A stretch of DNA of 62,459 nt, the filler included, from Hausera hauseri (taxonomy: Eukaryota): NCBI GenBank assembly GCA_046269625.1. It is 10 parts of 10 records of this genome, joined end to end, with 100 filler letters (N's around TTAATTAATTAA, not from the genome) between each part and the next. Parts side by side here need not be neighbours in the genome. Positions count along the whole stretch, not along the records: positions 27,068 to 32,629 come from JBJURY010230961.1; 9 more parts are not named here. The stretch is one strand, 5' to 3'. This document shows positions 9,907 to 58,482 of this stretch, one piece after another. Made by a program: the position numbers and the translations under genes. The notes beneath the pieces were generated by a model. That model was given only the letters and a program-made list of their open reading frames with translations, was not told the DNA's origin and did not search any database. Each line of letters starts with the position of its first letter. The stretch's first letter is position 1.

Positions 9907-12259
9907 TTACATCTCTCCTCCCTGAGCGGCATCCTCGAAGGAGCCTATTGCATCAGATGTTCTAGGTTGTCGTAATAGGTTTAATCTTTGTCTCAAATCA
10001 GTATCCTCCTCTGGCCGGTTCCGGTTGCTCATAGGGTTTGTTTCCAAATCATAACTATAATGGGGTTTGATACGAACGACTCTGGTATAGTTTCCATCTG
10101 AGTAGTATTTTAGGTCTGTCGCTACTGCCCGACGTACTGGACATGTCGTTTTTCCATTTTCGAGTGTCCACTTCTCCAGACAATCAGGACATTATTTGAG
10201 GTGGCAGACTTTGTTATCCAATATTACATAACCTTTCCTCATATTGGCGTCACACACAGGACATTCATTATCTTCTTTGTCCCAATTGCCTCTATCCAAG
10301 TCCACCTGGATTGTTAATTCAATCGGTTCGAATACCAGACCATCTCCGTCTTGATACAGGTATCCATGGATTGCCTTTTGTTTAGGATTAACTGAACTTT
10401 TCCGTGCGTCACAATTTACTTGAATTAACGTCCAATCTGCCATAAAGTCTCGATCTAAATCGGGAACTTTTCCTTCTATTCGATATTTCTGATATTGTTT
10501 TTTCAGTAGTATCCGGATTTGCTTATCTACTGGAAGTATTATCTTCCCTGTCCTTCTTGAGCGAAAAACCGATGTGAGATAATTTCCTAATTTGGGATTT
10601 TACGAGATATACGTATTTTCGAAAACTTCTCTTATCGAGCCGACCTTTATATAAAACATAGCCTTTTTCGGCGAGTTCTGGGTGGTTTTGCAATGGACAT
10701 TTTCTCCAATCTTGTTTTTAAGAAGGACATTAATCTCGGTTATCATAGGCTCGACGGTTTTTTGAACTGTTTGGGAAGTACTAGGCTGGGCCTCGTCTTC
10801 AAGCTTTTCTTCCTTTCTTTTTCGTTTGAATATTTAGTTCTAGATAGACGGTATCTTCTTTTGTTGGGGTTTCTCTTCTAGTTTTTGTTCTTTTCGTGGT
10901 GTTTTCAGTTTTCGATTCGTTTTGGGGTTTTCGTATCTTAAGTATTTCTTGATTTCATATCTATTTCCGCTTCTTTTCGTGTTCTCGTAATACCTGTTTC
11001 TTGAGCTTCTTGGGGTTTTTGGGAACTATACTAAACTTTTGTTGGTCTATCTCTCGTGTGACCTTCTCTGGAGAATAGGGTATAATCCTTTTCCCGTACT
11101 TCATATTTAGATTCTCGGGTATCAGCGAGCTACATGGATTGTGAATAGGATCCTCGGGGGTCCGTTCATGTTCCCATTTCAGTTGCCTACAAATCCCTTG
11201 TAAGTAGTGGGAACATTGACTATCAGTTAGACATCTGTCAATTCTATCCGTGTTCTGGGTCACTGCCTCTATTGTCAATTTCAAGAAGGCTTCTGGGGCT
11301 GTCGGTCGTGGGCGATTTCTTCTTTGTAGGGTTTTCTCCATTTAGTCCTGAACTACTGGATGGGTAGCTATTTCTCTGACTCCAGCAATATTTGTATTAG
11401 TCAATTCTGATAATTCTATGGATCGTTAAACATTATATCCTGCTAGCACACATCCATAAAGACAGTGTTCTAACTCTAAACGAACCTTTTTGATATTTCT
11501 TCCTCTTATTAGTTGGTCCTCTTTTAGGCCTGTTACTTCTGCATAAGATTCCTGGACCCGTTTTCTGGGGTTTATCGTTGTGGCGTATATTTCGTATCCA
11601 CCTCTTTCTCTTATGCATATTTCTATGAGAATTTCGTAACCATCATCTCCTCTTCCGCAATTTGTCGCAATAATCTTTGCGTTTTGACCGTCTTTTACTA
11701 ATCTGTATGACTGGCGATGTATGTCTTTTTCGATTTCAGACGGAACTTGTTTAAATTTTAAATACGGAATTGGTAGGTCATAGTTTTCTTTATATACCAC
11801 CTCTATCATCAATTTAACAAGAATAGCGGCTACTCAAAATTCTAGGCTATGGTTAATTCGCTGTAGACCTTGGCTGTTTATTTTGAATGTACTAAATCGG
11901 TACTGGTGCTCTTCATTGCAGTTCCAAGGTTGCTCTTCTATTCTGTAATGTATTTCTCCATCAGCCAGATGGATGAATATATCTTCCGCTTTAGTGTTTC
12001 TATTCCGGATCAGTTCTTTAAGGCAATGTGACTTAGCATGATTATTTTCGCGCATTGCATATAGAAAAACCACGCTATTCTCTTCTGTAATGCCTTTTAA
12101 ATCATTTGGTATCTCGTTTACTTTCAAGTATTCGACGGACTTTTTTGTTTGTAGCGCATCATTTATTCTACTGTATATCGCTTTCGTCTTGGGGGTGAAG
12201 ACTGTTGCGTATTCTTCTAAGTATTCGTCGACACTAACTCGGCTGATCGTATTTACCAT
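9907..12259 (-). pseudogene. Accessory protein: inactive DEDDh (ISG20/REX4-like) exonuclease fold + C-terminal C3HC4 RING, decayed
   Basis: IEICIRERGGYEIYATTINPRKRVQESYAEVTGL...VLAGYN; CPVC...CHLK*CPDC...CPVR; frame ends QGGEM* across the PPT; many stops and frameshifts. Confidence 0.7.
9912..9923 (-). promoter_or_regulatory. Polypurine tract preceding the 3' LTR (LTR begins TGTAAT at 9911)
   Basis: Minus strand AGGGAGGAGAGA followed by TG; nearly identical to 59192-59203. Confidence 0.8.
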
Positions 12260-12399
12260 TCTGAAGAAAATTATGAAATAAAGATCAGTCCTATAACAAA
12301 GTATCGTTCTAAATTTGAAACAATTTTTGTTAGATGGTGGAATAACCTAACCTGTAATTGTCAAGTTACTCCATCATTGATTCTATCCTGCGGTACCAC

Positions 12400-14534: not shown

Positions 14535-15621
14535 TCATTCTTCCTTGCTACAGGATGCACCGGTATCAGAATAGAACGGTTCCTCATCATCAGTCAAATC
14601 AAGTTTTGGATTTTTCAATTGTTCATTAAAGTTAGTCTCCGTTCCTTTTCTTTTCTCAGGCCGTTTTTTCCCTTGAATTTCTCTATCCTGTTCAGATGCT
14701 GACAGAACCTTCTTTAATAATTCCTTTTCAAATTTCTTATTGATCACCATCAATTTTTTTCTTTCCATTCCTTCTAATTTTGTCTTACGTTCGAATGAAT
14801 AACCCTGATCATTGAGAAATTGTCGTTTTTTCCGACAAGAAATTTCTTCTGCCGTTTCCGATGAAAAAAGCGAGTACAAAAAAGCATTGGATCCATTTGT
14901 TCTCATGCCCCCTTTCGCACAAGTAATTCGTCCGAACTGTTAAGCTTCTTGTATTCTCGAAGTGCCCTGAGAGGATATTTTGATCAAAACGTTGGCTGCC
15001 GGCAAGTCCAAAGCGAAATCCGCAATTTTTGATACAAAAATGGTGTTCACCTGTAACAAGTTCAACAAATCGACCTAACAACCGATAATAGATTACTTTG
15101 TTATTTTTACGAAAATCCTCCATCACTCGAAGTCGTTCGTCATGATTGGTAGTTACATCCAAATACGGTTTTACCATTCGAGTGGCATACTCCTTTAATG
15201 AAAATAAACTATCGGACAAAACAATTATTTTATCGCCGCATCTTTCATGATACTTAATGAGATCTTTGCATTGTCGCATCTTTTCAGGGTTCATAATACA
15301 AAGTAAAGTCTGTATATCGGGCGGACTCTTAGGGTTAATAAAATAATTGATGCATTATTCGGAGGTTAAAATTACTTTCTTATATTGATCGTAGAAAACT
15401 CCTGTCATTGGACAACTGACTTCAATGCACTGGACTTTAGTAATAAATCTTTTATCTTGCAACTCCTTTAAATCAGCCTCATATAGTTTCGGACCAACTA
15501 GAAAATTAAGATCTTTGATCCAATTATCTTTTTGTACTAAAGTTGCTGTAAGGACTAATTTACAATTTCCATGAACTTTTGACACAACTAAGCTAAATGT
15601 TCGGGCTGGAATGGTATGTAT
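14535..15621 (-). pseudogene. ERCC3: Divergent XPB/ERCC3 TFIIH helicase, C-terminal three exons
   Basis: IHTIPA...[23 protein letters not shown]...[15 protein letters not shown]...[46 protein letters not shown]; GT-AG introns 15328-15375 and 15051-15096; in-frame stop in helicase motif VI. Confidence 0.88.
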
Positions 15622-24738: not shown

Positions 24739-25779
24739 GTAAATATTTTTGTTATAGTAACTAATTTGTTGTTTGAATGTTTCGTGGAAAATAATCAGTT
24801 GTGTATGTTATTTGTTAAATTGTAACTATATATTTTAATTGATCATATATTTTGGATTTCCACGAAAATTTCAAATCAATTGAATTGAATTTGTGTATCA
24901 GTGTTTCGTTAAGTTTAATTGTATGTATTTTTGTTCAGCATGACATACATACGTTTTTGTATTTTTAAATTTCTACAATCAGGACTTTTTAAAATTTGTT
25001 AGTGAATGAATTTATTCCGTTAAATTACTAGAATTTTGATTACAGAGATTGTTGAATTAATTATCATCATTGTATATGACAGGAAATGCAATCTTCAACG
25101 TAAGATGAGTTTAGAGTGATTACGAATTATCCCTAAATTCCTATCTAATTATATGGGGATTTTGGAAGGGCTTGGTGAAAATATTGATACAAATTTCATT
25201 CATTACAGTCTTCGACATAAAATACCGAGCTGTGTATGATTTACTTTAAGAATATTAAACACTAATTTAATAATACATGCATAACGTTATTGAAATACCA
25301 TTGCGGTAACAAATGGGAAAATTGCCATATTTTAGAAAAATTATAATGGTACTGCACTTTTAGACGGAAACATAACGTTGTATTTATATGTTTTCGATAA
25401 CAACTGTAGATGGGCAACATTCAAATGTTTTGTGGCCTGCAAGGTGTGTATGTGCCTGGCACTACGGTCAGTAGTGTTGGGTCGGTTAGTCCCATTCGGG
25501 ATGAAAAGCGAAATTTAGTAGCCCGTCGGCGTCCTACATCCACACGTCATCCCCACCTCCACGCGGTTCAGACTGGAAATTGTGACTACCAGGTCACAGG
25601 CAAACGGGGCTCTGGCGCGCCTGGTAGAGATGAACACCACCAGGTTAAATCCTGCCCATTCGGGCAAAACCATAGTCTACCCTAGCAAACAAAGGTGCTG
25701 AAGCAGGGGGTATCACGCCAGGAGGCGCGCCACAGCAAGCATGATAACACGTATTGCCACTGCAGTGCCAGATGCCAAA

Positions 25780-26333
25780 AATTGATAAGAGATATGAAAT
25801 TACCGTTTAGGCGGGCTCACGAGTCACGACGACTTTTACACGAATTTTATGAGGGTGCCAATGTCGGCAACATTCTTATTTCTTGTAACAACATAGGGCA
25901 CTGGCAGTGCGTGGGTTAAGTGGATAACCGGCTAGTAAGGGGAGATAACGTTTGTGAAATGTATTTTATTTTCATTTTTAAGACGCAATATATTTGAATG
26001 TAGATAGATATTTTTTATGTACCATCATCATTGCTGATGGCGTATTTATGTAGTTAAATGATGTATGCATCTTAATCATTAGTCTTTTGATGACGTAAGA
26101 TATATGTAGTTACATAAAAATATATTACGTCATCAAAAGGGAAAAAAATAAATTTCACAAAAGTTGTCTCTCCTTAATACCAGGGTATTCATCTAACCCA
26201 CCTGCTGTTAGAACCCTATGTTGTTACATGAAATAAAAATGTTGCCGACATAGGCACCCTCATAAAATTCGTGTAAAAATCGCCGTGACCTGTGGGCCCG
26301 CTTAAACGGTAATTTCATATCTCTTATCAAATT
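25780..26333. mobile_element. MITE/foldback element with ~190-bp terminal inverted repeats
   Basis: TTGATAAGAGATATGAAATTACCGTTT...GAATTTTATGAGGGTGCC mirrored by GGCACCCTCATAAAATTC...AAACGGTAATTTCATATCTCTTATCAA. Confidence 0.8.
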
Positions 26334-26519
26334 TGTGTCTGTCGCCAACGCGGCCGTCTCTCGCTTATCGATACCTTTAAAATAATTAATTTTTCCATGC
26401 CCGCGCTTTAACCCGACACGCTATATATCCCAACATATAAAAGAACTGAATACTAGTTTGTGGCCATGTTTTGCGTGGAGTGTTGTCTATAAGTGTTGTT
26501 TATGAATCGGTATCTCTGT

Positions 26520-26754: not shown

Positions 26755-28550
26755 AACATCACACTGTCTACACAACCTCTAATTTTAAAAATTGAAGGCG
26801 AACAAAGCTACCAAGACGTCACCAGCGACCTACTGCGGAACCCCCAGACATAACACACCGCCCAAACTCTTATCTCACCCACCAAACTGTATCCTACGTC
26901 ATCAAAAGTATGACGTCTTCAAAAGAATTATGCTGATAATGCATTCACCTACATTAATACGTCATCANNNNNNNNNNNNNNNNNNNNNNNNNNNNNNNNN
27001 NNNNNNNNNNNTTAATTAATTAANNNNNNNNNNNNNNNNNNNNNNNNNNNNNNNNNNNNNNNNNNNNTGAAATTTTGCCGCCGGTCATTCCTGTACGAGT
27101 TTGAAAGATATCTAAAATATCAGCAATTATATTAAAACTGTAACTTGTGATTTACGTGATTAAAATAGTGAAAATATATTAGGGAGATTTTATCAAAACC
27201 AGTTATTAAAAAGTAGTTTTTAAAGTTTTAAATTATATAAAAATGGACAATCCAAAACCGTTGATTCTAAATCAGAACAATATTAAAAATTGAATTTTTG
27301 GCTCAGTTTCAATTATTTGTTCAAAATAAGAACATGATATTTGCAAAATTTGAAATTTCAAGTCAACTGGACTTAAGGAACAAAATTAGGAAAACAAATG
27401 AAAATATATTTATTGAGTAACAATTTGTTTAATTAATCAATTTTTCAAATAAATAAATTATTTTTTTTAAATGAAAGAACCTCGTTTATATTTATCTTTA
27501 TTTAGTTTTGAAAATGGTAAGAAATTTATAAAGTAGAAGTTTTTACAAAATTTATTTAATTTAGATGGAAATATTCAAATTGAAGAGGGAGAAATTAGAA
27601 ATTTGAAGACACTACTAAGTAGAAGGAAAAATAACTTAGGAAATTGAAAGAGGAATAAGAGAAAATATTTGGAAGAAAAGAAAAGTTAATGAATAAAGTT
27701 AAAAATATAAATATTAGAATCATCCAAGAAGAGGGTGTCTTAAATAATTTGAAACAGCAGGCAATTAATACACAAAAATTATACCATTTAGTTTTGTTTT
27801 GGTGATATTCGATGTTCTTATTATATTTAGTGTTAATTGTTATTTAAAAATAAACTTTTAATTATTTACTTATAAAATTGTATTAAAGTGGCAGATTTTT
27901 TCTACAAGTAAGCCTGATTAATCACAACAATTGAATGTTTTTGCTTAATGAGGACAGTTTAGACTTGGCAAGGAGCTGGGCGTAGATCGAACGCTGGAGC
28001 TTAGAGGGAATGTCTCCCCTGGGTTTTCTGCTCTGCATCACCATTCATTTTGAAGCACACTCACAGTCAAGTACAAAAGCTACTTACACAACCGTCTTCA
28101 GATGCTCGAGCCATAACGATATAAGAAAATACTCGTAAAGATTTAGAGCTACTTTAACAATAGATCAATGTGTTTTTCAGTCAATAGCGTGTTCTTTTTA
28201 GTGCCCACGCTTAAAGTTATAGTTCCTTCCAGGAAAAGATTTTTCAGCTTCAAATCAAGAGGAGACCTAATTACAAATGCAAACAAAAACAATGATGCAC
28301 AGGATATTATATACAATCAACTTTAGCGTTACAAGCAATTTAGCTTTGTTTCATTTGTTTATGCAAGATCCAAATAAATACACTGATGGTGATAGTTGTA
28401 GTGTAACAAAATGTGGAAAATCCGTAATCCAACATGTTCCTTCTATTCATCCCGAGGGAAAGTCCTTAATAATTCAAAATAAACGACTTGTAATTAATTT
28501 TATTGACAATTAATTTTCATGATCTAAAATGTATATAGTTGTAAATTTCT

Positions 28551-28924
28551 CTACTGTTCCGGCCAACTGCCGTAATCTTCATCAATTACTAATACTATAG
28601 ATGGTCGACTATCAATATTCAAATATGTAATTATTCCTTCTGCAATATAAAAGTCTACTGATTTGAGGCAGTAAGGACACCATTGACAAGATCCCAAATA
28701 TTCCAAAATACATGGCCGGCAAAACACATGGCGACATGGCAGGATAATCAGGTTATCTGCCACTAATTTAAGGCATACCCAACAGAATGTACAGGCTCGT
28801 CGACAACAAGGGCAGTTACTCTGTTCGTTCAACCAAGTGCCGATACAAAGCTGGCAATATGTGTGTCCACATGGTAATGTTGTTCTTTCATTTGTCATTC
28901 CTTCAAGACAAATGGGGCAAATGT
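28551..28924 (-). CDS. Double C3HC4 RING-finger exon (putative E3 ligase)
   Basis: CPIC..LPCGHTYCQLC..WL..CPCCR and CWVC..LPCRHVFCRPC..CPYC; no ATG before the first CxxC; acceptor TTACAG at 28925. Confidence 0.85.
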
Positions 28925-28977
28925 CTGTAATCAATAAAACACTTCATTAACTATTACTATATTTTATTACAAATTTA

Positions 28978-29210
28978 TTAACCAATTAATTTATTAATTT
29001 CCTCTACATCACTATCCGACAGGGCACAAACAGGACACATCAAAAAATAATTTTGGTCCATTGTCATGGTACTTAAATTAGCCTCTTCTTCACAATAGGC
29101 ACATTCAAATATGTCTTCTTGATGGCTCAGTTTCTCAACAAGGTGGCATAATTGGCAGGTATTTTCTTCCTCGTTACTGGTTTCTGAAATCCTTTTGCAT
29201 ATAATGCAAC
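28978..29210 (-). CDS. Zn-finger exon (4 x CxxC)
   Basis: CIIC, CQLC, CAYC, CPVC; acceptor ATTTAG at 29211. Confidence 0.6.
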
Positions 29211-29341
29211 CTAAATTCAATATATTTATCAAATTGATTTGATTATTTTCTTCTTTAATAATTATAATAAACTATTTAATATCTTCTTCTTATCCCTTTA
29301 CTCTGTTTACTTCACATTAAAACAATCAAGATAAACATTTA

Positions 29342-29628
29342 TTAAATTGGCATTTGCACAAGTCCATTGGGACCGACTACATATAATGGAGTTGGGTCTA
29401 TTATCCTATCTTCCCGTTCTTCTTCCTCCTCGTCAAGGATCACTACTGTGGTGACTCCCAGGCAGTTGTAGCTGCTTGCCTTCCTCCTGCAGAAAGGGCA
29501 GCTTTGCTTTCTCGACAAACATTGGTCAGCACACCTGGTACACATAATATGTGTACACCTGAGTAGAGCATAACGCAATCCAAGAGCGTTGTAGCATATT
29601 TTGCATTTTGTGACTCTAGTTCGGATAT
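29342..29628 (-). CDS. C3HC4 RING-finger exon with acidic tail
   Basis: CKIC..LRCTHIMCTRC..CPFCR; frame is open upstream of the ORF-track start to acceptor TTATTAG at 29629. Confidence 0.8.
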
Positions 29629-31274
29629 CTAATAAAATATGATCAATATTTACTTACTGATGATAACAATATTATAAATCGCATCAAAATATTTAACCCT
29701 CGAGTTTTACATCCTCACTCGGGGCACCAGAAAATGTTTATCATGCTGGTGTGAAGTACAAATATAACTTATTCTTATACAAGGTAACCATAATCTAATT
29801 CTCACCAACACGTAAACATTTTAAAATAATCTTCTAAAGGCTGAGTTCTTTGGCGGTACGGTAAATGAATACCTGCGCCTCCTATCAACTGATCATTTAC
29901 ACTAATGGCATTCCCAATACGATTGTAAATATAGCATAATAGTGAAATTAATTCTATTAATCTTAAACAATCATTCGTCGTATCAAAAATCAAAGTTACA
30001 TCTGACGTATTTTCTTCATTTTCTAGGAATCATCATCAATCACAGTAAATAGCATTTATGGTAATAATTACAATCACATGTAATGTATATATATTAAGTA
30101 CATAACAAACGAAACATAAACCTATCATCCAAGTAACAAACCCTTGTTTCGGTCTAATTTGCATCAGTTTATCATAAAAATAAAAAAAATAAATATATAT
30201 ATTGATTCGGGTTTGTGATAACGAAAGAATTTATACTGACAATCACAATCGCATATAAATGAATGGTAAAATATATTTAATATATTTATAAAGATAAAGT
30301 TAATAGACCATTTTTTCTTTAAAACTCATATCCTTATAAAGGATTAATAGACCAGGATCAATGAAAATCATCCCTAGCCATTCCCTTTTCATGATTGTTC
30401 TAACATCCGTTATCCTAATTTTCTGTCGGGATTTGACTACGGGGTCTGTGAGGACATTTAGTATATAACACAGAATCAATACCTCATATGAGAATTTATC
30501 ATTTATGGTTGTTTCATTGACTATTATTATTGTATGTCGATATCGGTCGTTTTTCATCCTTTTAACACCATGACTAACCACTTAACAGTATCTCCACTTA
30601 CCAACGTTATTTATATAAACCTCCCAAAAGATTTACTCAAAAACTTCAACCAATTAATTTCCAGTTTTTAGTTTCTCATAACATTTATCATTCTTTAAAT
30701 TTAAGACAACAAATTAATTCTTTATTTTTCCATTCTCAATTCCCAACGATATGTACCATTATTTCGGCATTTTAAGACCATAAAGTAATCATTTAATTTC
30801 TTCATTATCATATTTGAACATTACGTGTTACCATCTCCACTATTTCAGGTTTCTATTCTTTTATTAATAAGAATATTTACTCTCCTTTGTCTTTCATCAT
30901 AATATCTCATTTAGCTGATTGCTGATCTGAGAACATTTGGAGGTACAATCTGATTCGAAGGGTCAATCGTACTATAAAATCACCCAATTGTATATCACTT
31001 CGGTCCACTCAACTTTTCTTTCTTTAGATATTGGTTATCGGAATCTCTTAAAACTTTGTTCAACATCATATACGTCTTCTACTGTACATCCAAAGTTATT
31101 AACCACAAGATCTGTATACAACAGTAATTCATATTAAACAATGCAATAATTTATTATTTGGCAACATTTATTATAATACAAATTAATACATGAAAGAAAA
31201 ATTTCTTGCAACTAATTTAAGGGATAATATTTTATATTAATTTATTTATATATATAAATTACAATCATGTTTAC

Positions 31275-31320
31275 CATTCTGTGTTTGACGTGTTTCAGTA
31301 TTATCATTATATTCGGCCAT
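31275..31320 (-). CDS. Candidate short leader exon (MAEYNDNTETRQTQN + G, phase-1 donor GTAAAC)
   Basis: ATG at 31320 in GGATGG context, 15 codons + 1 nt, then GT; phase matches the downstream acceptors. Confidence 0.35.
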
Positions 31321-32729
31321 CCTCATGTGCTGGTTCAAATTCGATATCAATATGAATGTAGCAGTATTCAATGAAAGTTTTGTCCCGTAGAAAGTTTCAG
31401 TATTCTTTGATTTATCTGTTGCACTATTACTATATTCAAAATTATTAAATCGAATATAGCAATATCCTGCAAATATCTTTCCTTGAAGAATTCTTTCCAG
31501 TAGAAATTAAAACTGGCTGATAAGTCGAACTGGTTTATAAGTAAAACTGGTTTTTTGTGTGTGTTCTAAGCTGGTTTCCAATGTGCTTATATATCAATTT
31601 TCGGGTTTTTAAAATCTATATTATTAATTGCTGTTCCAATATTTTAATTGTTTCATAATTTTGAAAATCAATTTCGCTAATTGCTGCTTACCTTTAGAAA
31701 CATGTGTTTTCTTCAGTGGCCGAATTGTGTAAAATAAATTTTACTAATGTGCTGACATATAATCAATTTTATTAATGCACTGACATATGCACCTGTTGGA
31801 TGTGATGCCTCTGTAGATATCATCGATAACAATGTTAATGCACTGACATATTCACCTGTTGGATGCGATGCCTCTGTTGTAGATTCAGAAGTCAGTCAAC
31901 TAACAGAAGTCAGTCCTAGTCCAGTGGACGATGAGCTTTTCAGAGGTACGTCAGAAGCAGAAATCTTGCGAGAGAACAATACAGAAAACAAGAGAGAATT
32001 GGATATGTACTCGACATCACTGACTGCTCCTAACATGGCGGCTCAAGGGGAGGACAGCAGTAGGAGGAGGTAATTTCTTATATTCTGATTGCTTTTTCTG
32101 TACAGTGTACGACGTTCATGGTGTGTTGACTTGACATTGCTCGAACGAGTTCCACCCCGTGTTGTGCTGTTCATGAGTGTTAGACATGACACAGGGCTTC
32201 TCCAAAGGGATCTGACCCTTGAGTTGCTCAGCGGTAGTAGAGTGTGTGAAACAGTGCTGCTCGTCACCCGTAAGGCGTCCAGGCCTCGTATATCCGCTTT
32301 TGGCACATTCTAGACTTTTATTAAATGACTGGACCTTTTACCTGGACCCGTCATTCTGCAGACTAGAGACGATCAGGAGGGGAGGTCAAAAACGCGATCT
32401 TCATATTCGAGCGCCCTGTCTGTTCCTAGCTGGCTGGCCAGTTGGTTGGTTAGTCCGTTGCATTGGCTAAATTATATTGATAACAATTGCAAAAAAAAAA
32501 AATAAAAGACAAAAATGTGGACCATCGTTGATGCTCTCGAGTGCGCCGCGCTAAGATTGCTCACAATGGGATCAGAGCACTTATGACATTGATCCGATGT
32601 ACTGTAATGATGGTCCTTTTTACAAGCCGNNNNNNNNNNNNNNNNNNNNNNNNNNNNNNNNNNNNNNNNNNNNTTAATTAATTAANNNNNNNNNNNNNNN
32701 NNNNNNNNNNNNNNNNNNNNNNNNNNNNN

Positions 32730-37860: not shown

Positions 37861-38445
37861 TTACAATGCCACATGTCCGTGGGGTAGTGTATGGATTCCA
37901 TCACCCAGGATCTGCCTCTAGTCATCCATCCAATCTAGGCTTTTCTTCTGTAATGTTACTATCTGAATGTTATGAGCCCTAGACGGGATCCTTCGCATCT
38001 CTGATACGATATGAGTCTGCTCATGCAGAACTTTAACATAGTCATTGAAGCCTATCTTCTTGGCTAAGGTCGCCCTTTGAACCCCTTTAGCACGCTTGTT
38101 TATTTGGCCATACATATCAATAGCATACATTTTGGAACTAAGAGCTACAAATGTCGAAATGATTGCTCCATTCACCTTGTCTTTGAATTTCCCAAGGAAC
38201 TTTTTGTTGGTAAATGAATAGTTGGGATGTTTCTTCGGATAGTTGGACGTATTCTTATGCTGATCCAACTTCACAAAGTCATCATAAATATCCTCAGTAT
38301 GGATCTGGTAGATGAAACTATCAGTATCTATATACATCAGCTGTATATACTTGAATGTGGGGATCATAATGTCATAGTGGAATTTGTACATCAAAGTCTT
38401 TGACAGGTCCAGTATTGCCATACCCACATATATGGGCTTGTTGAA
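37861..38445 (-). pseudogene. Protein-primed DNA polymerase B, C-terminal part (subfamily B)
   Basis: ILDLSKTLMYKFHY, YIDTDSF, LGKFKDK, KRAKGV; closely similar to 54504-55131 including the 3' UTR. Confidence 0.92.
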
Positions 38446-38656
38446 NNNNNNNNNNNNNNNNNNNNNNNNNNNNNNNNNNNNNNNNNNNNTTAATTAATTA
38501 ANNNNNNNNNNNNNNNNNNNNNNNNNNNNNNNNNNNNNNNNNNNNAAACATGTACAGCAGATGAATGTAAAATAAAGATCACAAATGTCAATGATCTAAC
38601 TGGACTGAATTGCATGTTTGCAGTGAACTCTTTGTAAACACTAAACGTGTGATATT

Positions 38657-41600
38657 TTACTCCAAACGCCAATGTCCGTACACCAAACTCTTATTTCGCC
38701 CCACCCACTTACGCTTATTATCATTGCACGATAAAGAGACTTTTTTATTCGTTACGGTATAGAGCTGGTGCTCAATTGATCGGATGATCGTTTGAGACAC
38801 AACAACCTTTGATTTTCTTTCTTCTTTAGAGACACGGCGATAGTCATCGTGGTCGATTTTCGTCTGAGCCAATTGAACGCGGTCTTCGCTTTCATCCTTG
38901 AAGCAGTCGATTTTGTTGGTGATCGCGCTGCTGTGCAACGCATCATCCGGTGGGTAGTTGGACGTGTCCAGTAGTCCATCTGCCATCATTTTCTGGAGCA
39001 GCTGGTCGCGATTGACGTGCTTCGCTCAAGGAAAAAGCTGCCTGTGTCACCGGGAACGATGCTGATCTCACAACCTCCAAAAATTTGCCGGTAACGTGTT
39101 AAGTCGCGATACTGGAGCTTGTACATTCGCAACTTACTCAGGTCCAATACCACTTGTCCGATGTAACTTGCTTGGTCCAGTAGGACTTCTTCCCGGTCTA
39201 ACAGCACCGCAACCAATCCATCGGCAATGTATATTGACCGTCTGAACTGAGCCTTGATGGTGTACGTAACCAGCCGCAGTTTTTTTACTTTTGAGCCGGG
39301 CGGATAATGGCTGATTGGTGCACGCGTAATTCATCCAGAGCGTCATGCAACTCATCTGGTACCGAAAGATCGACTTCCATTAGGTCGCCGACTGAGCTGC
39401 TTTCTGTAGTGTTTGCTGCTGGCAGACTGTCCAGCAATATATTTAGTTCTTGTTTGCCCATTATCCATTCAAATGAACCGTACGGCAAGGGGTTGCAAAA
39501 CCGCCCAGCCGCACAGGTTATTAATATCGGTACACAACATTTACGTTGTATCGTCGGTTACGTGATGCTTGTTGACAAATGTCATGCCGCCACGAAAACC
39601 AACATCAAATAGTCGGTATATTTCCGGGTCTTGCAACAGCTCAATTTCCCTGTCCAGCAACATTAGTGCCGATGCCCAACTCATCCTCGGTATGGAGTAA
39701 AAGTTTAGCGGCTCCAGCCTATCTTCCACTAACTCCTTAGCACGAAATGTCTGAAACACATCGGCTAACAAGTACACATCCAGTTTCAGGTACTGCAGCA
39801 TGTACTCCAACATGTTTTTGCAGCCGAGCACTGTCCAGGCTTCCTGTGCTCTGTGGTACTCGTCCTATGTGATTCCGGCCCACTGTGGCGGCAATTCATC
39901 TGCTGTTTGAAGCCGCTCGTACGACACAGCAAAGTCATACGGGAATATGCCTTTGCTGCATACAATATGCACGGGAACTGCGTCAGTGTTAGCGGCACAT
40001 CCGGCATGGCATTTACGAGCTTTGCTAGAGACTCATTGAGGAACTGCAATGAGTCAAGATATCGTATGTGAAACCGGTTTATGCGTGACGATAAGGACAG
40101 GTAATTCTCCATCGTTGCTGGGATTATGGATAGCTCCCAGTGTGGAAATCCGTTAATGGCCAATTTCAGAATATGGTGATAGTCATAATCCCTGAAGTTA
40201 TGAAATATCACCGGCAGGAATGGCCGTGCCCGTCTTGCCAAATTGCATGAATTGTGCCCAAGTATCGACCAGTGAAATGATTATGATCCGGTACGAACCG
40301 TTCCTGTGCATCGAACGGCAGTATTTTGTGGCACAGGTAACATTCGTCAGTGGCTGCGAAAAGCAGTGGTTCATATTTGTCTGCTTAGACCAAGGGTTTA
40401 GTGCTATTATTCCAATACCACGGTAGATTTCCGTTTCCTCTATTGTCTCTAACTGATGCAGGAAATTATGGACACAGTTCCATCCGTATAAAACATAGTA
40501 TTGTGGTTGTCGATGGACTTTGATTGGCACAACCAGCAGGCCGACGACAATTGTGACATGCTTTTGGTCGCAGATATTGTGCCGTGGTAAAATTTCCTCG
40601 ATATCGGCATATACCACATATGCCGGACTGCCGATTTTTGACCAGTCAATGAATCTGAGTTCCTCTTTTTTGACTGGCATGACATACTTTTTGTTCCTGT
40701 TGCATTTTTTCTGCACAGCGCCACATGCTTTTCCCATATCTCTTCTGACCTAAAGCCATGAAAACATATGGGACACCATTTGCAGCATATGCGTTTTTGG
40801 ACAAACTGATCATGGTCCATTTTTAGTAATCTATTTAAATTTGTTACTTCCACATAATGAAAGTTTTCTGCATTCTCCAACAGCAACAAATTTACTGGTC
40901 GTCTATTTGGGTTCCGACTGAGGTAGGTTATGTCTACATGGGGATTTTTGTATATTTCTTCATCTGTTAGTATCTCTATTATTATGTTGTACCGGAACAC
41001 GTTCATTGTCAGTGTCGAATTACGCCGTTTAAAAGCCGGAATGGTTTTGAGTTTCATTGGCATCCAACATTCGTCGTAGTCCAATTCTGAGAAATACTTA
41101 CTATACTGCTTTGGACAATTTTCATGATGTCTGGACACATGATCATATTTCAATATAGCCAGAATGCTGTAAGTAAAGCAGTATTCATCGTTAGTATTTT
41201 TGAACATTCACTACCGCCAGAGAATGCTTCAAGGATGCAGGTGTCGGTTTGAATATACGTCCGGACAAGTAAATCATGTCACTCATCTTGGTCAGAATAA
41301 AGGCGAAAGTGACAATCTTTACAATTCGCCAGCCGCTGCCTTTTTCCGTATAGTTGGCGATTTTCTCATCGAGCTTTTCGCCAATGTCCTCAACAACGAA
41401 ATCTTCGGTATATGGCAAAGCTCGATGTGATAGGTACCATTGTTTCCTGTCACCTTGCACGTTTTCGAATTCTGCAAATGCATAATACTGCACTTTGCAG
41501 TTGTTGCGTTTGAATTTCCGCACTTCAACTTCCAGTCGGTTTCGCACACTGGACGTGACATGTCTCAATTGCATTGTTGTTGTCGTTGCCGCTGACATGT

Positions 41601-42243
41601 GCACGTACGATCTATTTAGATCGTACTTGACGGTAATGGGTGGTTCCTGCTGGTCATGTTGCTCCTGCTACTGATGCTTACTGCTGCTGCTTTGCGCGTA
41701 TTCGTCAAAGCTTGTGGATGCTTGACGTTTTCTACTGGTTGTTGTTGTTGTTATTGAGGGGATGCTTCTTTTTGTCGAGTCCATGACTAGTTGCTTTTTG
41801 GACCGCTTAAACTGGTTTAAGTGGTCCTTGTGTTGATTATAGAATTTCTCATAGTTGATTTGATGATCATCAACTATAGAACAACAACAACCGGGACAAA
41901 CATAGACGCTTTTACTGTGCAGCGTTGTGGTGATGCCATAGTACTGTTCCATTGCAGTATGGCAACCATCAACGTTATGCACTCTACTAGTACAGTATTG
42001 TGGGTATGTGGGGTAATGCTCAAGCATCTTCTTGGACCGCGTAAACGGCCCGAGATGAAGCTTGTGCATCTCGTAAAAGTCGGCGTATGGGCACTGGGTT
42101 GAAGTATTGCACGTTGGACATAGATATGTGTCCGTCCCCACAGCGTAATATTTCGCCATCTGCTGATGGCACTTCTCCTGATCTATGTGTATGCGTGATA
42201 TGCAATACAAGGGATAATGTTTGCATTTCTGAATGAGAACCAA
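38657..42243 (-). pseudogene. Protein-primed DNA polymerase B polyprotein (Cys/His domain, terminal-protein/vOTU-like region, Exo with EndoVII-like insert, Pol), decayed, subfamily A
   Basis: KGSGW, NDEYCF, YADIE (ExoI), VIFHNFRDYD, YLDSLQFL..SLAKLV, YLKLDVYLLADVFQTFR, RGGMTFV, GDTGSFF, LDTSNY, FKDE; internal deletions. Confidence 0.9.
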
Positions 42244-42785
42244 ATTAAAGTAAGCGTAAAATGCAATATATATGTATATTAACTTATTAATAGTTTAAAT
42301 TAAAATAAAACACTACTTCTATGGTGGGGTGGGATGGTGATGGTAGTGGTCTAAGGGCGACTATAAATATTTGTCAATCAATGTCACAAGTAAACGAGAG
42401 ATGAAAGAGTACATAGAAAGTAAGATTCAGAGATTGACCTATGACATTTTGACCGGCCATGTGTTTGATGTTCAGTACATATGTGAGCTGTCAGAAACGA
42501 GAATAATGAGCAGGCGAGAATATATTGAATTAAGTCAGATCTCTGTTCGTAAAACGTATAGAGGATGAAATGAGACAAAAACGACAAAAACGACGACGAA
42601 TTAATTTCCTCATTGGACTTGTATTTACTGTTTCGCTTTGTATTGTAATAAAAAAGTTGATTGACCGTATTTAATCACAAATATATAATTTCGCTACGTA
42701 TTTGTTTTTATTGTGTGTGTGTGTGTTCAAGCTACATTGCAGTATAAATACTTGTGCTTCTTCTTTCTTTCCGTAAGATTATACA

Positions 42786-44039: not shown

Positions 44040-44160
44040 NNNNNNNNNNNNNNNNNNNNNNNNNNNNNNNNNNNNNNNNNNNNTTAATTAATTAANNNNN
44101 NNNNNNNNNNNNNNNNNNNNNNNNNNNNNNNNNNNNNNNCAAGGTGAAGCCGCCGCGCCG

Positions 44161-44220
44161 CGTAGCCGCCGACGTGAGGAGGCGGACTCGACACCCCAGC
44201 GCCGGAATCCGCCTCCTCAC
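44161..44220 (+). repeat. GTAG-type REP palindrome
   Basis: CGTAGCCGCCGACGTGAGGAGGCGGA...TCCGCCTCCTCAC; exact inverted copy of the first arm at 47857-47882. Confidence 0.7.
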
Positions 44221-44347
44221 AGGAGCGCGGCATTCAAGACGCAGGAAGGTTCGCACAATGCAGCGCATACCTAAATCCTCTGATTGGCGAACCATCCTGC
44301 GGAATGAAACCCAAGCCCAAGTGCATCTTGCAAGACACCGTTAATGT

Positions 44348-44722
44348 TCAATCGCACGGGCCCGTCCCGACCACTTCCGTGTATTCCTCTAAAGTCACAG
44401 CATCCGCAACCTCATCACCACCAACACATTCATGATAAAGAGAAAGATACCGCCCAGCGACAGGTAAACAATTTCCACCCGTCATTGGCGTTACAGTAGT
44501 TGAACGTAATTCTCCATACACACAGCTCTCGCCTGACCGAAATGTGGAGGAATCACATACGGTCTTAGCAGGTGAATACGCCGTGTAAGAACAAGGATTG
44601 GAGCTGCACGTTGCTCCAGTTTTTTCCACCGATCTCGCGCTCTCATAGCATGCCAACCCATACGAGATGCATGTTGTTAAGGCTAGAACGCACGCCGTCC
44701 GCATTTTATTTGTTGTCTTCAT
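44348..44722 (-). CDS. Secreted Cys-rich protein (signal peptide + 8 Cys in mature part)
   Basis: MKTTNKMRTACVLALTTCISYGLA-CYE...PCD; start overlaps or abuts the upstream stop. Confidence 0.7.
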   Translation of the reverse strand: MKTTNKMRTACVLALTTCISYGLACYESARSVEKTGATCSSNPCSYTAYSPAKTVCDSSTFRSGESCVYGELRSTTVTPMTGGNCLPVAGRYLSLYHECVGGDEVADAVTLEEYTEVVGTGPCD

Positions 44723-45785
44723 GTTTGTTTTGTTTACTTGAGCGGCGCCTCGCAGCCACACAGGTGACTGCAATTGGAGGCACCACAAAAAGGATTATCA
44801 AAATCGTCAGAAGAGCGCGGCCATTATGCGCACTCTCCCGCTTCTTGTCGCTGTTACTAGCAGCCAAACGCTGCGCAAACTGTCTCGCTTTGATCATCGT
44901 TGGACTGTTGGATTCAGGTATGGCGTAATTAGTGATTGATTTTATTGTAATCGGATTCTTCTCACGATAATCACCGAGATCTGTCACATTAGTCATTGCA
45001 GAAAATACTTTGCTGCCATGTAGGACTATGTTCGTCAGCACTCCTACGGTGTGCATCATAAATCCAGACTCACCATTTAACGCTGCTTTTTCTGCCGGAT
45101 GAAATTTCCTCAATTCAAACCGCGATGGAAAATCAAATCCAGATATGTTTGTCTTCTCAAGAACCGAATAGCGGCATTGCAGATATTCTGTTAATTTTTG
45201 CCCTGCTGAAGGCTCCCCGCTAGGTTGAAACGTGATTCCTATTGGATTGATGGAATATATAGAAACCGATTCTGGAAGCCCCCCGTTCTGCATCAACTTC
45301 CATTCGCCACGGCCCTTGATTGGCTTATTTCCGATGCCCAGCCCAGCCATCACCTCCATTTGTGTGTTTGTCTTGTTCCGGAAATACTCGGCTGTGCCCA
45401 AGCCCATGCAGGCTGCTTCCACTCTGGTTGACCTGGTTAATACATAATGCGCCGGTATAATGGACCCGGCAGCTTTATTGACCGTTCTTGCCTTTGAGAA
45501 GTTAACAAATGACACGACGTATTCCCCATTGTATGCGTCAACAAATGTATTCTCACTGCCAGCTCCCGAAGCTTTCATTGAGACAGCTTCCCATGTGTTA
45601 TTGCTGACACTGATTTCAAAGATTGATTCTGACTGCAAAGTCATATTTGATTCATACAAATACAGTCTAGAATTGATAATTCCCTGCGCAGTAAAGTGCG
45701 TTAAATTTACGGCATCTGCTGCCAGGCATCCAATGCATACTGCAAGCATCGTCAGCAGCACTCCAACACTCTGCAACATGTGCAT
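44706..45785 (-). CDS. Exported protein with signal peptide and C-terminal membrane anchor
   Basis: MLQSVGVLLTMLAVCIGCLA signal; ALLTILIILFVVPPIAVTCVAARRR anchor with basic tail. Confidence 0.7.
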   Translation of the reverse strand: MHMLQSVGVLLTMLAVCIGCLAADAVNLTHFTAQGIINSRLYLYESNMTLQSESIFEISVSNNTWEAVSMKASGAGSENTFVDAYNGEYVVSFVNFSKARTVNKAAGSIIPAHYVLTRSTRVEAACMGLGTAEYFRNKTNTQMEVMAGLGIGNKPIKGRGEWKLMQNGGLPESVSIYSINPIGITFQPSGEPSAGQKLTEYLQCRYSVLEKTNISGFDFPSRFELRKFHPAEKAALNGESGFMMHTVGVLTNIVLHGSKVFSAMTNVTDLGDYREKNPITIKSITNYAIPESNSPTMIKARQFAQRLAASNSDKKRESAHNGRALLTILIILFVVPPIAVTCVAARRRSSKQNKHEDNK

Positions 45786-45816
45786 TGTTGCGTTAATAGG
45801 TAAACAGCATTTCATG

Positions 45817-46308
45817 TTATGTGCGCTGAAATCGATCAATGAAACTTGTCTTTATTAGTCCTGCCGTGGATCCGATCAGCAAAAATAATACAATCATCGT
45901 TGCGGCGGTGTTTTTAACATTATCACTCACGCCTATCCACTGCCACCATGTTCCCAAACAAGCGCACTCACCTTTATAGCCAATTACTTTCAGCGACACG
46001 CGATAAAATCCTGCTACTGATGAAAACCACAATAAAGCTGTTAGTTGCAACAGCACAGATCTTCTCTTGTAGTAGGCCACGGTTAAAAGCACCAATACCT
46101 CCATTGCAATCGCGCAGATCATTACTGTTTTGTTGGTGGCAAACTTAAACAGTGGATCCGAGTTATTCATATAGGCGTTTGTTGGCTGGAATAGGCTGGC
46201 CAACTTGAAAGCCGCCGTCAGTGCAATGAGTGCGGACGCCACTGTGATGAACCCATTTGTAAATCCATCACCTGCGTGTTTTTGATTATCTTCCACGCTC
46301 ATTGTCAT
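45817..46308 (-). CDS. MauE/DoxX-family membrane protein
   Basis: About four hydrophobic helices, TAAFKL, DPLF, AMEVLV and the CACLG motif (MauE CxCxG). Confidence 0.75.
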   Translation of the reverse strand: MTMSVEDNQKHAGDGFTNGFITVASALIALTAAFKLASLFQPTNAYMNNSDPLFKFATNKTVMICAIAMEVLVLLTVAYYKRRSVLLQLTALLWFSSVAGFYRVSLKVIGYKGECACLGTWWQWIGVSDNVKNTAATMIVLFLLIGSTAGLIKTSFIDRFQRT

Positions 46309-46438
46309 TTCTCATACCCCAATCACCGTGACCGTCACGATGTCGCTTCATTGTCTCATCTGGCCTCACCCCGGTGGTAGGCGGCCTTGTAGCACCAACT
46401 GTTGTTCCCTCGTGTGTTCATGGCGTGCTTCATCGCCT

Positions 46439-47128
46439 TCAGGCTTGTGCCAGCGGGGCGTTGTAGGTGGCCTGGCGGATGCCGGAGCCGTAGTTCACGC
46501 GCACGAGCAGGGTCTGCGGGCCGGTGAGGGCGGCGGGCACCAGCACCAGCAGGGTGCCCTCGGTGCAGGTCAGGTAGCGCGTGGCGCGCGTCTCCACTCC
46601 CGCCGCGTTCTTCAGGAAGACGCCCTGTGTGGCGTCCGCCGGGTCCAGCTTCAGGTCGTGGCCGGTCAGGCGCAGGGCGTCCCCGGGGGTGTAGCTGTTG
46701 GGCGTGGGGCTGGCCTCGTTGCGCACCAGTTCCAGCTCCGGCAGGCGTTCGGTGTCAATCCCGGTGCGGTCCAGGGTGAGTCCCGCCTGGAACTGGCCCT
46801 GGAGTTCGCTGCTGGCGTAGAGGTTCAGGCTGGGGCCGATGTCGGCGGCGGAGAGGCTCTGCTCCGGGTCGTCCACGGTGCCGCCGCTGGAGAGGCCCAT
46901 GCGGAAGAGGCCAAAGAGCGGCTCGCTGGGGCGGGTCTGCTGGGCGGCGTTCACGAGGATGCGCCGGAGGTTGGAGAGCACGCTGCGGATGTCCCCCTCG
47001 GAGATGGCGGAGGCGTGGACGAGTTCCTCGATGACCTCCCCTTCCGTGAGGGGCGGGGCCAGATCGGGCCGGGTGGTGTAGGGGTGCGCGCCGAGGTGGC
47101 TGGGCTTGATGCGGTAGCGGAAGGGCAT
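46439..47128 (-). CDS. HU/IHF-like DNA-binding protein with C-terminal Ig-like (DUF4469-type) domain
   Basis: HU-like helices and GLFRMGLSSGG arm; YTPGDALRLTGHDLKLDPAD..QGVFL Ig-like domain; GC3-rich codons. Confidence 0.7.
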   Translation of the reverse strand: MPFRYRIKPSHLGAHPYTTRPDLAPPLTEGEVIEELVHASAISEGDIRSVLSNLRRILVNAAQQTRPSEPLFGLFRMGLSSGGTVDDPEQSLSAADIGPSLNLYASSELQGQFQAGLTLDRTGIDTERLPELELVRNEASPTPNSYTPGDALRLTGHDLKLDPADATQGVFLKNAAGVETRATRYLTCTEGTLLVLVPAALTGPQTLLVRVNYGSGIRQATYNAPLAQA

Positions 47129-47579
47129 GGGGTGGAGGTTTCAGGTTTCAGGTTTCAGATTTGAGATGGGAGGAAGCTGCTGCGGACGTCCGTGCTCCGG
47201 CAGCCGTGTGAGGGAATTTTTGCAGGGCAGTCTGGCGGCTTTTCCAGCCGTGTCCGGCGTCCGATCCCGGCGTGTTGGGGAAGGATTCATGCCGTGTCTG
47301 CCCCTCCCACACGGCGTGTTGGACGGGCAGACACGGTTGGGAAGGCAGCGAACCCAGTCCTGAAATGTTCCCGCTACCCGCGCAGAACTGTCCCATAACG
47401 GGACGAATGCGGGGGGGGGGTATAAAAACGGGACACGACTCCCGCCCATTCCGGGCCGGGGCAGAAGAAAGGCACTCTGGTGTCGGTCTCTCTTCATGCG
47501 CTAGGTGTGGCGCACGACATACCCGCTCCCTGTGGCAATGTCAAGTGTGCTGGCTGTGCCATTTCCGTTTCGGGAGCAT

Positions 47580-47752
47580 TTCAACCCGAATTCCGAAACA
47601 GGCCTCACGCAAAGGCGCGAAGGCGCGAAGAAGAAAAGGCTTCCGTTGGACAGTGCCCTGAAAAACAGCCGCCATCGGCCTTCAGGAGAAAACCGCTCCC
47701 TTTTGCGCCTTTGCGCCTTTGCGTGAGGTTTCATTTAGGAAGTCGGGTCAAA
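47580..47752. repeat. REP-like inverted repeat pair
   Basis: CTCACGCAAAGGCGCGAAGGCGCGAAG (47604) mirrored by TTTGCGCCTTTGCGCCTTTGCGTGAG (~47702). Confidence 0.7.
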
Positions 47753-47888
47753 ACCCCACCCACTGAGGGCACCGGGCCTGCAAGCGGGATATTGCGTCCG
47801 GTTCCTGCAGGCCGCGTGCCCCACGCGGCGTTCCGGCGGGTCTTGAAAGAACCTCATCCGCCTCCTCACGTCGGCGGCTACGGGGCGG

Positions 47889-48882
47889 CTACCTGCCTCC
47901 GGGGAGGTAATACTTCTCGGAGTATTCCTGCACCATGCGCCAGGTGCTGTATTGGGCGGCGAGGGTGCGGAGGGAGTGGCGGATGCGGGCGATCCACTGG
48001 CGGGGGATGCCCTGGGCGTCGCGGTTGAAGAAGGAGGGGATGACTTCCTGGGTGAGGGCGCGGTAGAGGTTCTCGCTGTCGCGGCGATCCTGTTCCTCGA
48101 TGTTGTCGGGGTGGGTGTCGTCGCCGATGGAGAAGCCGTTCTGGCCGTCGTAGCCTTCGCGCCACCAGCCGTCCATGATGCTGAGGTTGAGGCCGCCGTG
48201 GGAGGTGGTCTTCATGCCGCTGGTGCCGCTGGCTTCGAGGGGGCGGCGGGGATTGTTCAGCCAGATGTCGCAGCCGCCGACCATCTGGCGGGCGACGTGG
48301 ATGTCGTAGTTCTCGATGAAGACGAGGTGGCCTTTGAGGGCGCTGAATTTGCTGAGGTGAATGACTTTCTGGATGAAGGCCTTGCCGTGGTCGTCGCGGG
48401 GGTGGGCCTTGCCGGCGAAGATGAACTGCACGGGGCGGGCGGCGTCTTTGACGAGCTGCACGACTTCATCGAAGCGGTCGAAGATGAGCGGGGCGCGCTT
48501 GTAGGTGGCGAAGCGGCGGGCGAAGCCGATGGTGAGGGCGTCGGGATTGAGGAAGGCGTCGAAGGTGATGAAGTCCCCGGCGCTGATGCGATGGCCCTGG
48601 ATGAGCAGGCGGCGGCGGGCGAACTCAATGAGTTCGCGGCGGAGGCGGTAGCGCAAGGCCCACAGTTCCTCGTCGGAAAGCAGGTCGGGATCGGTGACGC
48701 GCGCCCAGAATTCGGGCGTGTTCGCGCCTTCGATCCAGGCGAGGCCGTCCTTGCCGGGGTGCAGTTCGTTGAACTTGCGCCGCCAGAAGCGCCGCACGGT
48801 GCCCTTCATCCAGCCGACGAGGTGGACGCCGTTGGTGATGTGGCCGATGGGCACGTCCTTCGCCTCGGCCTTGCCGAAGAAG
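47889..48882 (-). CDS. glgP: Alpha-glucan (glycogen) phosphorylase, 5' truncated, bacterial
   Basis: ITNGVH, TIGFARRFATYKRA, FAGKAHPRD, WLNNPRRPLEASGTSGMK (PLP lysine motif), DGWW. Confidence 0.96.
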
Positions 48883-49819
48883 NNNNNNNNNNNNNNNNNN
48901 NNNNNNNNNNNNNNNNNNNNNNNNNNTTAATTAATTAANNNNNNNNNNNNNNNNNNNNNNNNNNNNNNNNNNNNNNNNNNNNCATCAGTTTCATCTGGAC
49001 TTCTTTTTCAGTTTCTGTCTCCACTGACTGTTTGCACATTTCCTTGAGTGAACTTTTATCTTTTCTCAAGAGAACAATCATTCTGCACTGCTGCTCAATC
49101 ACTTTTTTTAATGAGCCAACTGTTCATGGATATTTTCAATTTCTTTTCGCATGTCAGTCAATCGTCTACGCATATCATCAACATCATCATTCTTCCTTTT
49201 TGCATTCACTTCAAATCTTCGGTTTAAATTGATATGAAGATCTGGGTTGGACGTTGCCATCAATTCTGTCGTTTGTATTTTTTCTCCTGGCTGCAATTTC
49301 ATTTTTAATCTGCTTACCCTGCGCCTGTCATTTTCCTTCTGTCATTTTGTGATCAGGTGATCTTTAATAATAATACGTTCTTATGTATTATTTGCATCTT
49401 CCTCTGCTTTCTTCAACTTTTCCTGCTGCTGCTTTGTCATTCTGACTTGCATACTTGTTGGAGTAATTATCCTGTTTATTGGTTTGTTTTTATCCATTGC
49501 AGGTTCAGCAAACTTCGGCTTTTTTCAACTGGTTCGTACTCGTCATCAGATTGTGTTAGCTCTATATCTTTTCGGAGCTGGCCGTATGAGGACACTGAAA
49601 CGCTTTCGTCGAGATCAACTGATTTTGTCGGGTCAGTTTCAGCCGCCGCCACAATCAATTCATGAGTTAAATTTCCGTTATGGATATACATGGGAATATC
49701 CTTTGGAATGTTCATGTGATATTCATTGTCTGTTTGCTGCTGTTGTTATTGTCGCTCCACTTCCAAGCCGACAACGATCATTTTTTGTTTGTCTTCTTCG
49801 GAAATCCTGATTTTCGACA

Positions 49820-50900: not shown

Positions 50901-51142
50901 TAGATCCATTCGGCGACAAATGACAGTAAATATCAAAAAACAAAAGTGTCGAATATGTACATTATTGTACAAATGTGTAAATATTTGATTGATTGTATGT
51001 ATTATATTAATAAATATTTGTACAGACTTCTTTGTCTTATGCTTTTTCTTATGTTTTGTCATAGGGTACCTTTAAATGTTGACAATTTGTTCACAAGTGA
51101 CATAGGGGTATTTATATCAACTTTGCAAAATTTAAACAAATT

Positions 51143-51222
51143 TGGGGTGGAAATAGTGAAACCACGACGAGGCCAATTGATTTTTTGGGGTGGGAATAGT
51201 GAAACCACGACGAGGCCAAAAT
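51143..51222. repeat. Two direct copies of GGGGTGG(A/G)AATAGTGAAACCACGACGAGGCCAA upstream of polB
   Basis: Copies at ~51143 and ~51187. Confidence 0.7.
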
Positions 51223-51289
51223 TTCCCATATAAAATATTGATTATTGATTTCCAATCTTGGAGGGTCCTCGAGATAGGAAATTTGTATT

Positions 51290-58083: not shown

Positions 58084-58463
58084 ATTACTTACTTTATCTA
58101 ACTCTATATTCACTTTATTCACTTTAAGTTTTTCACGTGGGGTTTTAAATTTATTATCGTTTTTAATGTCATCTAGCTTAATTCTATTCTCGGAATTCGA
58201 TCGTTTATCTACTTTTTTTGTTTCTATATATATATATTTCTACGTGTCTCACGTATAGGGGAATTATCTTTTAGTATATGGTTTAATCTTGGTCTATCAA
58301 TGATTGTTCTCAGTTACGTTTGTTTTACTTATCCCCCTCTGAATGATCTTATATCCCGATAGATTTAAGTTTCAATATATGTCTAATTACTTGGTGTAGA
58401 TGGCGCTGTTCGCCGATATGTGATTATTCAACTCTGAAAGTAAGTCTAGCGAGGTACAGACTG

Positions 58464-58480: not shown

Positions 58481-58482
58481 AA

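Follow-up and report, generated by a model that had tools for sequence, protein, structure and literature searches.

Analysis of a 62,459-nt window of Hausera hauseri DNA (the whole stretch examined, from assembly GCA_046269625.1) points to a transcription unit of an element that is multicopy and possibly viral; in this unit, a shared leader would be joined by splicing to alternative last exons encoding small RING and zinc-finger (ZnF) proteins. On the sequence features and copies described below, we give this reading a probability of about 0.6. Transcription would start near position 31560, driven by a promoter near a TATA box at 31593. From the donor of a 15-codon leader (31320-31275), cis-splicing would reach one of several competing phase-1 acceptors, 163 to 2350 nt away, each of which would open an ATG-less last exon ending in its own stop. 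The 3' ends would be formed at AATAAA signals, either those overlapping the RING and ZnF stops or the one after the double RING, and the choice of acceptor and poly(A) signal would pick a product of about 88-139 aa. The predicted leader fusions measure ~88 aa for an orphan exon, ~110 aa for the RING, ~92 aa for the 4xCxxC finger, and ~139 aa for the double RING.

The window consists of small contigs joined via N44-TTAATTAATTAA-N44 linkers, and neighbours across linkers are therefore uninformative. The RING/ZnF row sits on a 5.5-kb contig (27068-32629), and the repeated element that carries it spans about 3-3.5 kb. Its features are as follows:

28551-28924, minus strand: double-RING terminal exon, phase 1; tandem C3HC4 RINGs and an acid-flanked SIM-like IVLVI; AATAAA at 28504
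28978-29210, minus strand: ZnF terminal exon, phase 1; four CxxC pairs, tail acidic; stop overlapped by AATAAA
29342-29628, minus strand: RING terminal exon, phase 1; C3HC4 RING, SIM-like VVIL, then six acidic residues; AATAAA overlapping the stop
29802-30022, minus strand: orphan exon of 72 codons, phase 1; internal phase-1 donor CAG/GTATTC at 29873
30300-30580, minus strand: weak candidate exon of 92 codons; AAG acceptor, own Met at codon 8
31035-31111, minus strand: nearest phase-1 exon, of 24 codons; stretch -40 to -3 free of AG, TTAAT at -26
31275-31320, minus strand: candidate shared leader, 15 codons plus 1 nt (17 codons from the ATG at 31326); donor G/GTAAAC
31327-31655, minus strand: ATG-free stretch of 329 nt, likely promoter and 5' UTR
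31587-31593, minus strand: TATA-like box TATATAA, putative promoter element
32342-32354, minus strand: rival phase-1 micro-leader, 4 codons plus G, donor CAG/GTAAAA; own phase-1 acceptor near 32309 with a 63-codon frame

A Row of ATG-less Frames in a Common Phase

The original prediction held that four adjacent minus-strand frames lie behind YAG acceptors, all in phase 1 and with no usable ATG, and that each ends in its own stop. The coordinates all check, and reading of the frames bore out the four stops. The open codons in phase 1 number 123 after the CAG at 28924, 76 after the TAG at 29210, 94 after the TAG at 29628, and 72 after the TAG at 30022. In-frame methionines exist (M9, M48, M28, and M68) but fall within domains; in the 28924 and 29628 RING frames, a start at an internal Met would lie past the first CxxC, so that two zinc ligands would be lost. 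Near-cognate codons (TTG, ATT) are found in frame shortly upstream of each first Cys.

The spacers between the exons are short (53-173 nt from poly(A) signal to next acceptor) and AT-rich, with a GC content of 0.17-0.29 versus 0.36-0.45 in the three domain exons. When the spacers were shuffled 5000 times, a phase-1 YAG was placed by chance within 30 nt of the first Cys in 16-19% of cases per exon, and a phase common to all three domain exons arose in 1.6%. The shared phase of the three domain exons, taken alone, is modest evidence of limited weight. Shuffled spacers provided an ATG in just 11-18%, and the absence of an ATG alone is thus unsurprising. A TTRAY sequence was located at -17 to -26 in five of the six acceptors, three of which have no other AG within 40 nt.

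Two further exons had been proposed as weaker candidates. Phase-1 frames do exist at both places, with 92 open codons behind an AAG at 30580 and 24 behind a CAG at 31111, but the former has a poor acceptor and the latter looks decayed. The 30580 acceptor is accompanied by extra AGs at -13 and -18 and has no branch-like TTRAY; its frame, unlike the domain frames, offers a usable methionine (M8), and the differences listed for it among the copies described below are two synonymous and five non-synonymous. Constraint is not visible in this frame, which makes a weak candidate exon. The 31111 frame runs on past several stops and is thus probably a decayed longer exon. Comparison of the 30022 frame with the 30580 frame gave no support for a suspected likeness.

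Copies of the Element in a Sequencing Run

Among the sequencing runs compared, none listed as RNA contained the stretch; copies were sought in the assembled contigs of the one run that did (X1; 0.57 of words), possibly the window's own sample, in which the spacers were covered. The contig 27068-32629 was fitted by 533 X1 contigs, 338 of which showed less than 95% identity. The summed depth, which does not equal copy number, was 640-775 on the double RING, 72-192 over 28928-29857, 12-23 over 29858-31903 on the leader side, and 4-10 above 31904. A single variant was carried by up to 19 X1 contigs, which indicates that the unit is multicopy, its 3' end most so. The contrast in depth between the double RING and the leader side suggests that most double-RING copies come without a recognisably similar leader, and the drop above 31904 that the repeated unit takes in the leader at 31320 and not the rival at 32354-32342.

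Among the 40 of 221 X1 differences that were listed, eight indel rows fell outside coding frames (at or upstream of the acceptors of the three domain exons, or in the leader flank), two at the RING stop, and one outside the unit. Exon differences classed in the three domain exons were five synonymous and six non-synonymous in the same set, and one of the latter changes a RING Cys. The most-supported listed differences in these exons do not clearly show purifying selection, and some copies of the unit are probably dead. Four joints were observed among X1 contigs, none of them GT-AG and none at 31275. On the plus strand, an 80-codon frame (28271-28513) is convergent with the double-RING exon, the two stops being 38 nt apart, and X1 variants reach into this frame.

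The acceptor at 28924, one of the six acceptor sites, was examined in detail in 24 X1 contigs from this one run (summed depth 171). None of the eight listed substitutions affected the AG at 28925-6, an unlisted position not being proof of identity; position -3 changed from C to T only (four contigs), and position -4 was variable (three contigs). All eight listed indel rows were located within the 53-nt spacer, five of them with a frame-shifting length, and one diverged contig retains a TAG at the same place and in the same phase. An unchanged AG together with indels confined to the spacer is what a functional 3' splice site before a coding exon would show. These data support the view that the 28924 acceptor acts like a conserved splice site in other copies.

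A Candidate Leader and Promoter

The coordinates of the predicted leader were verified: the ATG at 31320 opens 15 codons plus a G, followed by GTAAAC after 31275, in phase 1. This ATG has an A at -3 and a G at +4, a second ATG is in frame at 31326, and the leader is followed by a 163-nt spacer with a GC content of 0.17. Just downstream of the TATA box lies a 17-nt tandem repeat with CCAGYT motifs (31508-31574). The 329-nt ATG-free stretch is the longest in 28300-32629 (4.3 kb), and its length was reached in 6 of 3000 shuffles; in the window, 14 of 2182 inter-ATG gaps reach this length. No private leader running from an ATG to a phase-1 GT fits the spacers before the double-RING, ZnF, and RING exons, and the options found before 30022 and 30580 are weak. 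The 31275 donor, like one host donor, belongs to the GTAAA type and matches 6/9 consensus positions, compared with 7/9 for the rival at 32342 and 8/9 for one at 31692. The idea of one promoter and one leader serving the row is thus favoured by the TATA box, the ATG-free 5' region, and the want of a private leader for three exons, but is weakened by the 6/9 donor and by the rival at 32342. The frame above the leader ATG is open for 60 codons further up; a reading of the leader as the end of an internal exon was nevertheless rejected, as one X1 contig carries a nonsense change and the AG at 31468 differs in both of the two contigs that cover it.

The same alternative last exons might, with a rather small probability, be served by another donor, either that of the leader at 32354-32342 or that of a common exon which is distant or is joined by trans-splicing, in the manner of mod(mdg4). 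Such a donor would leave many dispersed RING exons with few common 5' parts, and the depth of the 3' exons does far exceed that of every leader; the 32342 donor is, moreover, the better match to the consensus and is in phase 1. Against this, 32342 falls in the zone of depth 4-10, outside the repeated unit, and the TATA box and the ATG-free stretch indicate 31326/31320 as the start. The rival leader and its exon are overlapped, on the plus strand, by an acidic frame with a 21-codon repeat (31756-32313), joined in frame to a 74-codon frame across a 36-nt GT-AG gap (32071-32106) and having no Pfam match of note.

Less likely again, the row could be an ordinary multi-exon gene made of consecutive phase-1 exons, the apparent stops being read-through into introns. 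Same-phase exons are common in genes of shuffled domains, and phase-1 GTs at 29873 (6/9) and at 28983 (5/9), the latter one codon before the ZnF stop, would give in-frame joins to the next acceptors. However, the sole phase-1 GT after the RING domain matches 3/9 positions, one X1 contig retains the ZnF stop and its AATAAA without the GT at 28983, and the RING and ZnF exons each have a stop overlapped by AATAAA, all of which argue against such a gene.

Apparently ATG-less Homologues of the Double RING

A search with the double-RING protein returned 1218 proteins with E up to 0.001, the best 150 of which were listed. Among these 150, one protein (P0002) was the sole near-full-length match, with 45% identity and an E of 4e-25. 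Two others, P0162 and P0163, belong to the same family, P0163 being 41% identical over 111 aa and encoded on a 6672-bp contig. In the database, both P0002 and P0163 start at a Met whose aligned position falls within RING 1, and neither has a Cys ahead of the first CxH; in both the region of the SIM-like motif of the double RING is also present. As a control, an upstream in-frame ATG was found for 60 of 62 RING motifs in 82 fetched loci. Homologues that look ATG-less at 41-45% identity, set against this control, suggest that the ATG-less state is old and not a product of decay; P0002 and P0163 are 81% identical, thus not independent of each other, and make up one indirect line of evidence. Homologues having ATGs where the copies in the window have decayed, which the original prediction had named as evidence against it, were not seen.

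A word-based homologue search gave no relatives and then two, including the query row P0002. In a metagenome scan, in which 80 of 146 candidates were kept, the matches were at RING level only, with none for the ZnF, the orphan exons, the leader frame, or the family tail. The best non-family match to a profile of the second RING plus tail, among the proteins compared, was P0131 (E 1e-4), a 96-aa single-RING protein with its own ATG on a 17.8-kb Logan contig, a size that would fit a midsize DNA virus.

It is quite improbable that the frames are separate genes translated from an internal Met or a near-cognate codon (TTG, ATT), or genes whose ATG has gone in the course of decay. The near-cognate codons before each first Cys would be in keeping with this, as would the decayed look of the 31111 exon and the want of constraint in the 30580 frame, but internal Mets cost the first two zinc ligands, the homologues look ATG-less in like manner, and the AG is retained amid frame-shifting indels in the flanks. 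Lastly, an operon resolved by spliced-leader trans-splicing, in which the spliced leader gives the start codon as the terminal AUG of a flatworm spliced leader is described as able to do (PMC9851317), would suit the AT-rich, operon-like spacers but is the least probable of all, since such a leader needs phase-0 acceptors, and the double-RING and RING frames are opened in full by AGs in phase 1 or 2 and by none in phase 0.

Domains and Predicted Products

RING scores above the Pfam cut-off were obtained for two stretches of the 28924 frame and for one of the 29628 frame, and their eight zinc ligands in C3HC4 spacing assign them to the RING family. The ZnF exon matched no Pfam family above the cut-off, no family match was obtained for the 72-aa orphan (30022) and 30580 frames, and Rfam gave no match. 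The fold model of the ZnF was unusable (pLDDT 47), and the atlas search made with this exon was weak (recognition 2250). For the double RING, a model with pLDDT 64 led to generic RING matches; RNF4 and the EHV-1 RING were among the top PDB sequence matches, which covered the RING part alone.

Small effectors of the SUMO-targeted ligase kind are used by DNA viruses against SUMO-dependent silencing. Both RING exons finish in SIM-consensus motifs with acidic flanks, and they thereby combine the RING, the SIM-consensus core, and the acidic flank that mark a SUMO-targeted ubiquitin ligase by sequence. Such a SIM consensus with an acidic flank has been described in SUMO-targeted ubiquitin ligases of the ICP0 family and in RNF4 (PMC3174244). 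The acid-flanked motifs, with the tail region kept in homologues, lead us to predict an ICP0/RNF4-like action, in which the two RING products would be SUMO-targeted E3 ligases routing SUMOylated proteins to ubiquitination. They resemble ICP0 and RNF4 in having a C3HC4 RING and SIM-consensus motifs followed by acidic residues, but differ in that the predicted ligases measure about 110-139 aa and have a single SIM-like patch, which follows the RING on its C-terminal side. A natural tandem-RING, SIM-tailed protein of ~140 aa would offer a small model of a predicted SUMO-targeted ligase.

Origin of the Element and Comparison with Known Systems

A viral or mobile origin of the unit has, in our estimate, about even odds, and an expanded host gene family may be the alternative. 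The compact spacing, the poly(A) signals that overlap stops, the many diverged copies, and the Polinton remnants elsewhere are in line with an endogenous DNA virus or a large transposon. No pPolB, integrase, capsid, or ATPase gene was found with Pfam among the scanned frames of the 5.5-kb contig, and no long inverted pair was detected within 27068-32629, a stretch whose limits need not be those of the element. When the double RING, its alignment, the ZnF, the RING, P0163, P0131, and two pPolB pieces were used to scan viral contigs, no true relative emerged; two loci (L001 and L082) were rejected as short chance matches in phage genes. Decayed pPolB fragments of the Polinton type occur on separate contigs at 37900-42300 and 49300-55100 (DNA_pol_B_2, E 8e-5 and 1e-4). 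More tentatively, and with a good deal of doubt, the unit might be a modular early unit of an endogenous animal DNA virus or Polinton-like element, with one micro-leader and an expandable row of ATG-less exons for mini SUMO-targeted ligases and ZnFs, in which anti-silencing effectors would be gained or lost through the gain or decay of phase-1 acceptors.

The common region of mod(mdg4) and lola carries a BTB domain. In these Drosophila genes, a common 5' coding part of 4-5 exons is joined to one of many alternative 3' exons, with trans-splicing from separate promoters (PMC6237743). The candidate common part described here is, in contrast, a peptide of 15-17 codons with no Pfam match and not a multi-exon region, the unit is multicopy and of ~3 kb, and each last exon amounts to a whole domain, the domains being unrelated.

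Adenovirus pTP and polymerase share a tiny coding exon, and in FAdV-4 one tiny ATG-bearing exon is common to the pTP, ORF12, ORF13, and ORF24 products. The reverse-strand 17,972-nt promoter of FAdV-4 is described as giving rise to an N-terminally extended pTP, ORF12, ORF13, and ORF24 (PMC9962806). No sequence link to adenovirus and no adenoviral gene were found on the contig, whose cargo consists of RING and zinc-finger proteins.

The Oncoid accessory genes of adintoviruses (Polintons) are small CxxC-rich ORFs (PMC8502044), a likeness to the exons described here, and an 85-aa Oncoid ranked 40 among the RING-level fold matches (E 0.025). The main text of that paper makes no mention of splicing or RING, and the available text of bioRxiv 2024.03.25.586562 adds nothing on either. 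Unlike Oncoids, which have an LxCxE next to paired CxxC, the five exon frames contain no LxCxE, and no physical link to PolB was found, the pPolB pieces being on other contigs. In the literature covered, from which subscription papers were mostly absent, no description was found of a micro-leader feeding a row of RING or zinc-finger last exons. The layout works like known systems with a shared 5' part and alternative last exons, yet it is a member of none of those that were tested.

If the splicing is real, a compact panel of effectors would be obtained from one promoter and one start codon, with swappable whole-domain last exons. Gene callers that rely on an ATG would cut such genes short or overlook them, as the homologues suggest: among the matches listed, the only full-length relatives of the double RING lack the first zinc ligands as called, which points to an under-annotation of accessory genes of large mobile elements and endogenous viruses where splicing is ignored.

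Other Contigs of the Window

On the contig next to 27068-32629, a TDP-43 gene was identified that includes an intron of 48 nt and is a sign of an AT-rich animal; its best matches, insects included, are only ~50% identical. Downstream of it lies an imperfect, foldback-like inverted repeat of 565 nt (25778-26334) with 78% identity. Within 55634-62459, two unnamed ORFs (60057-61712 and 59484-60056) lie ahead of a gag-like zinc-knuckle region (56181-58239) and share its strand; the latter ORF leads into a broken RING. Both ORFs recur in another copy at 10192-12346 (61% identity over 135 aa), and the two loci possibly represent an LTR element with extra upstream genes. The contig 44140-48882 is GC-rich (up to 0.62), its ORFs look bacterial, and it has a terminal inverted repeat of 31 nt; it is probably contamination or derived from a symbiont. 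Finally, a fragment of an XPB/ERCC3-type helicase, either a host gene or a mobile copy, was found on the minus strand at 14535-15354, on a contig of its own.
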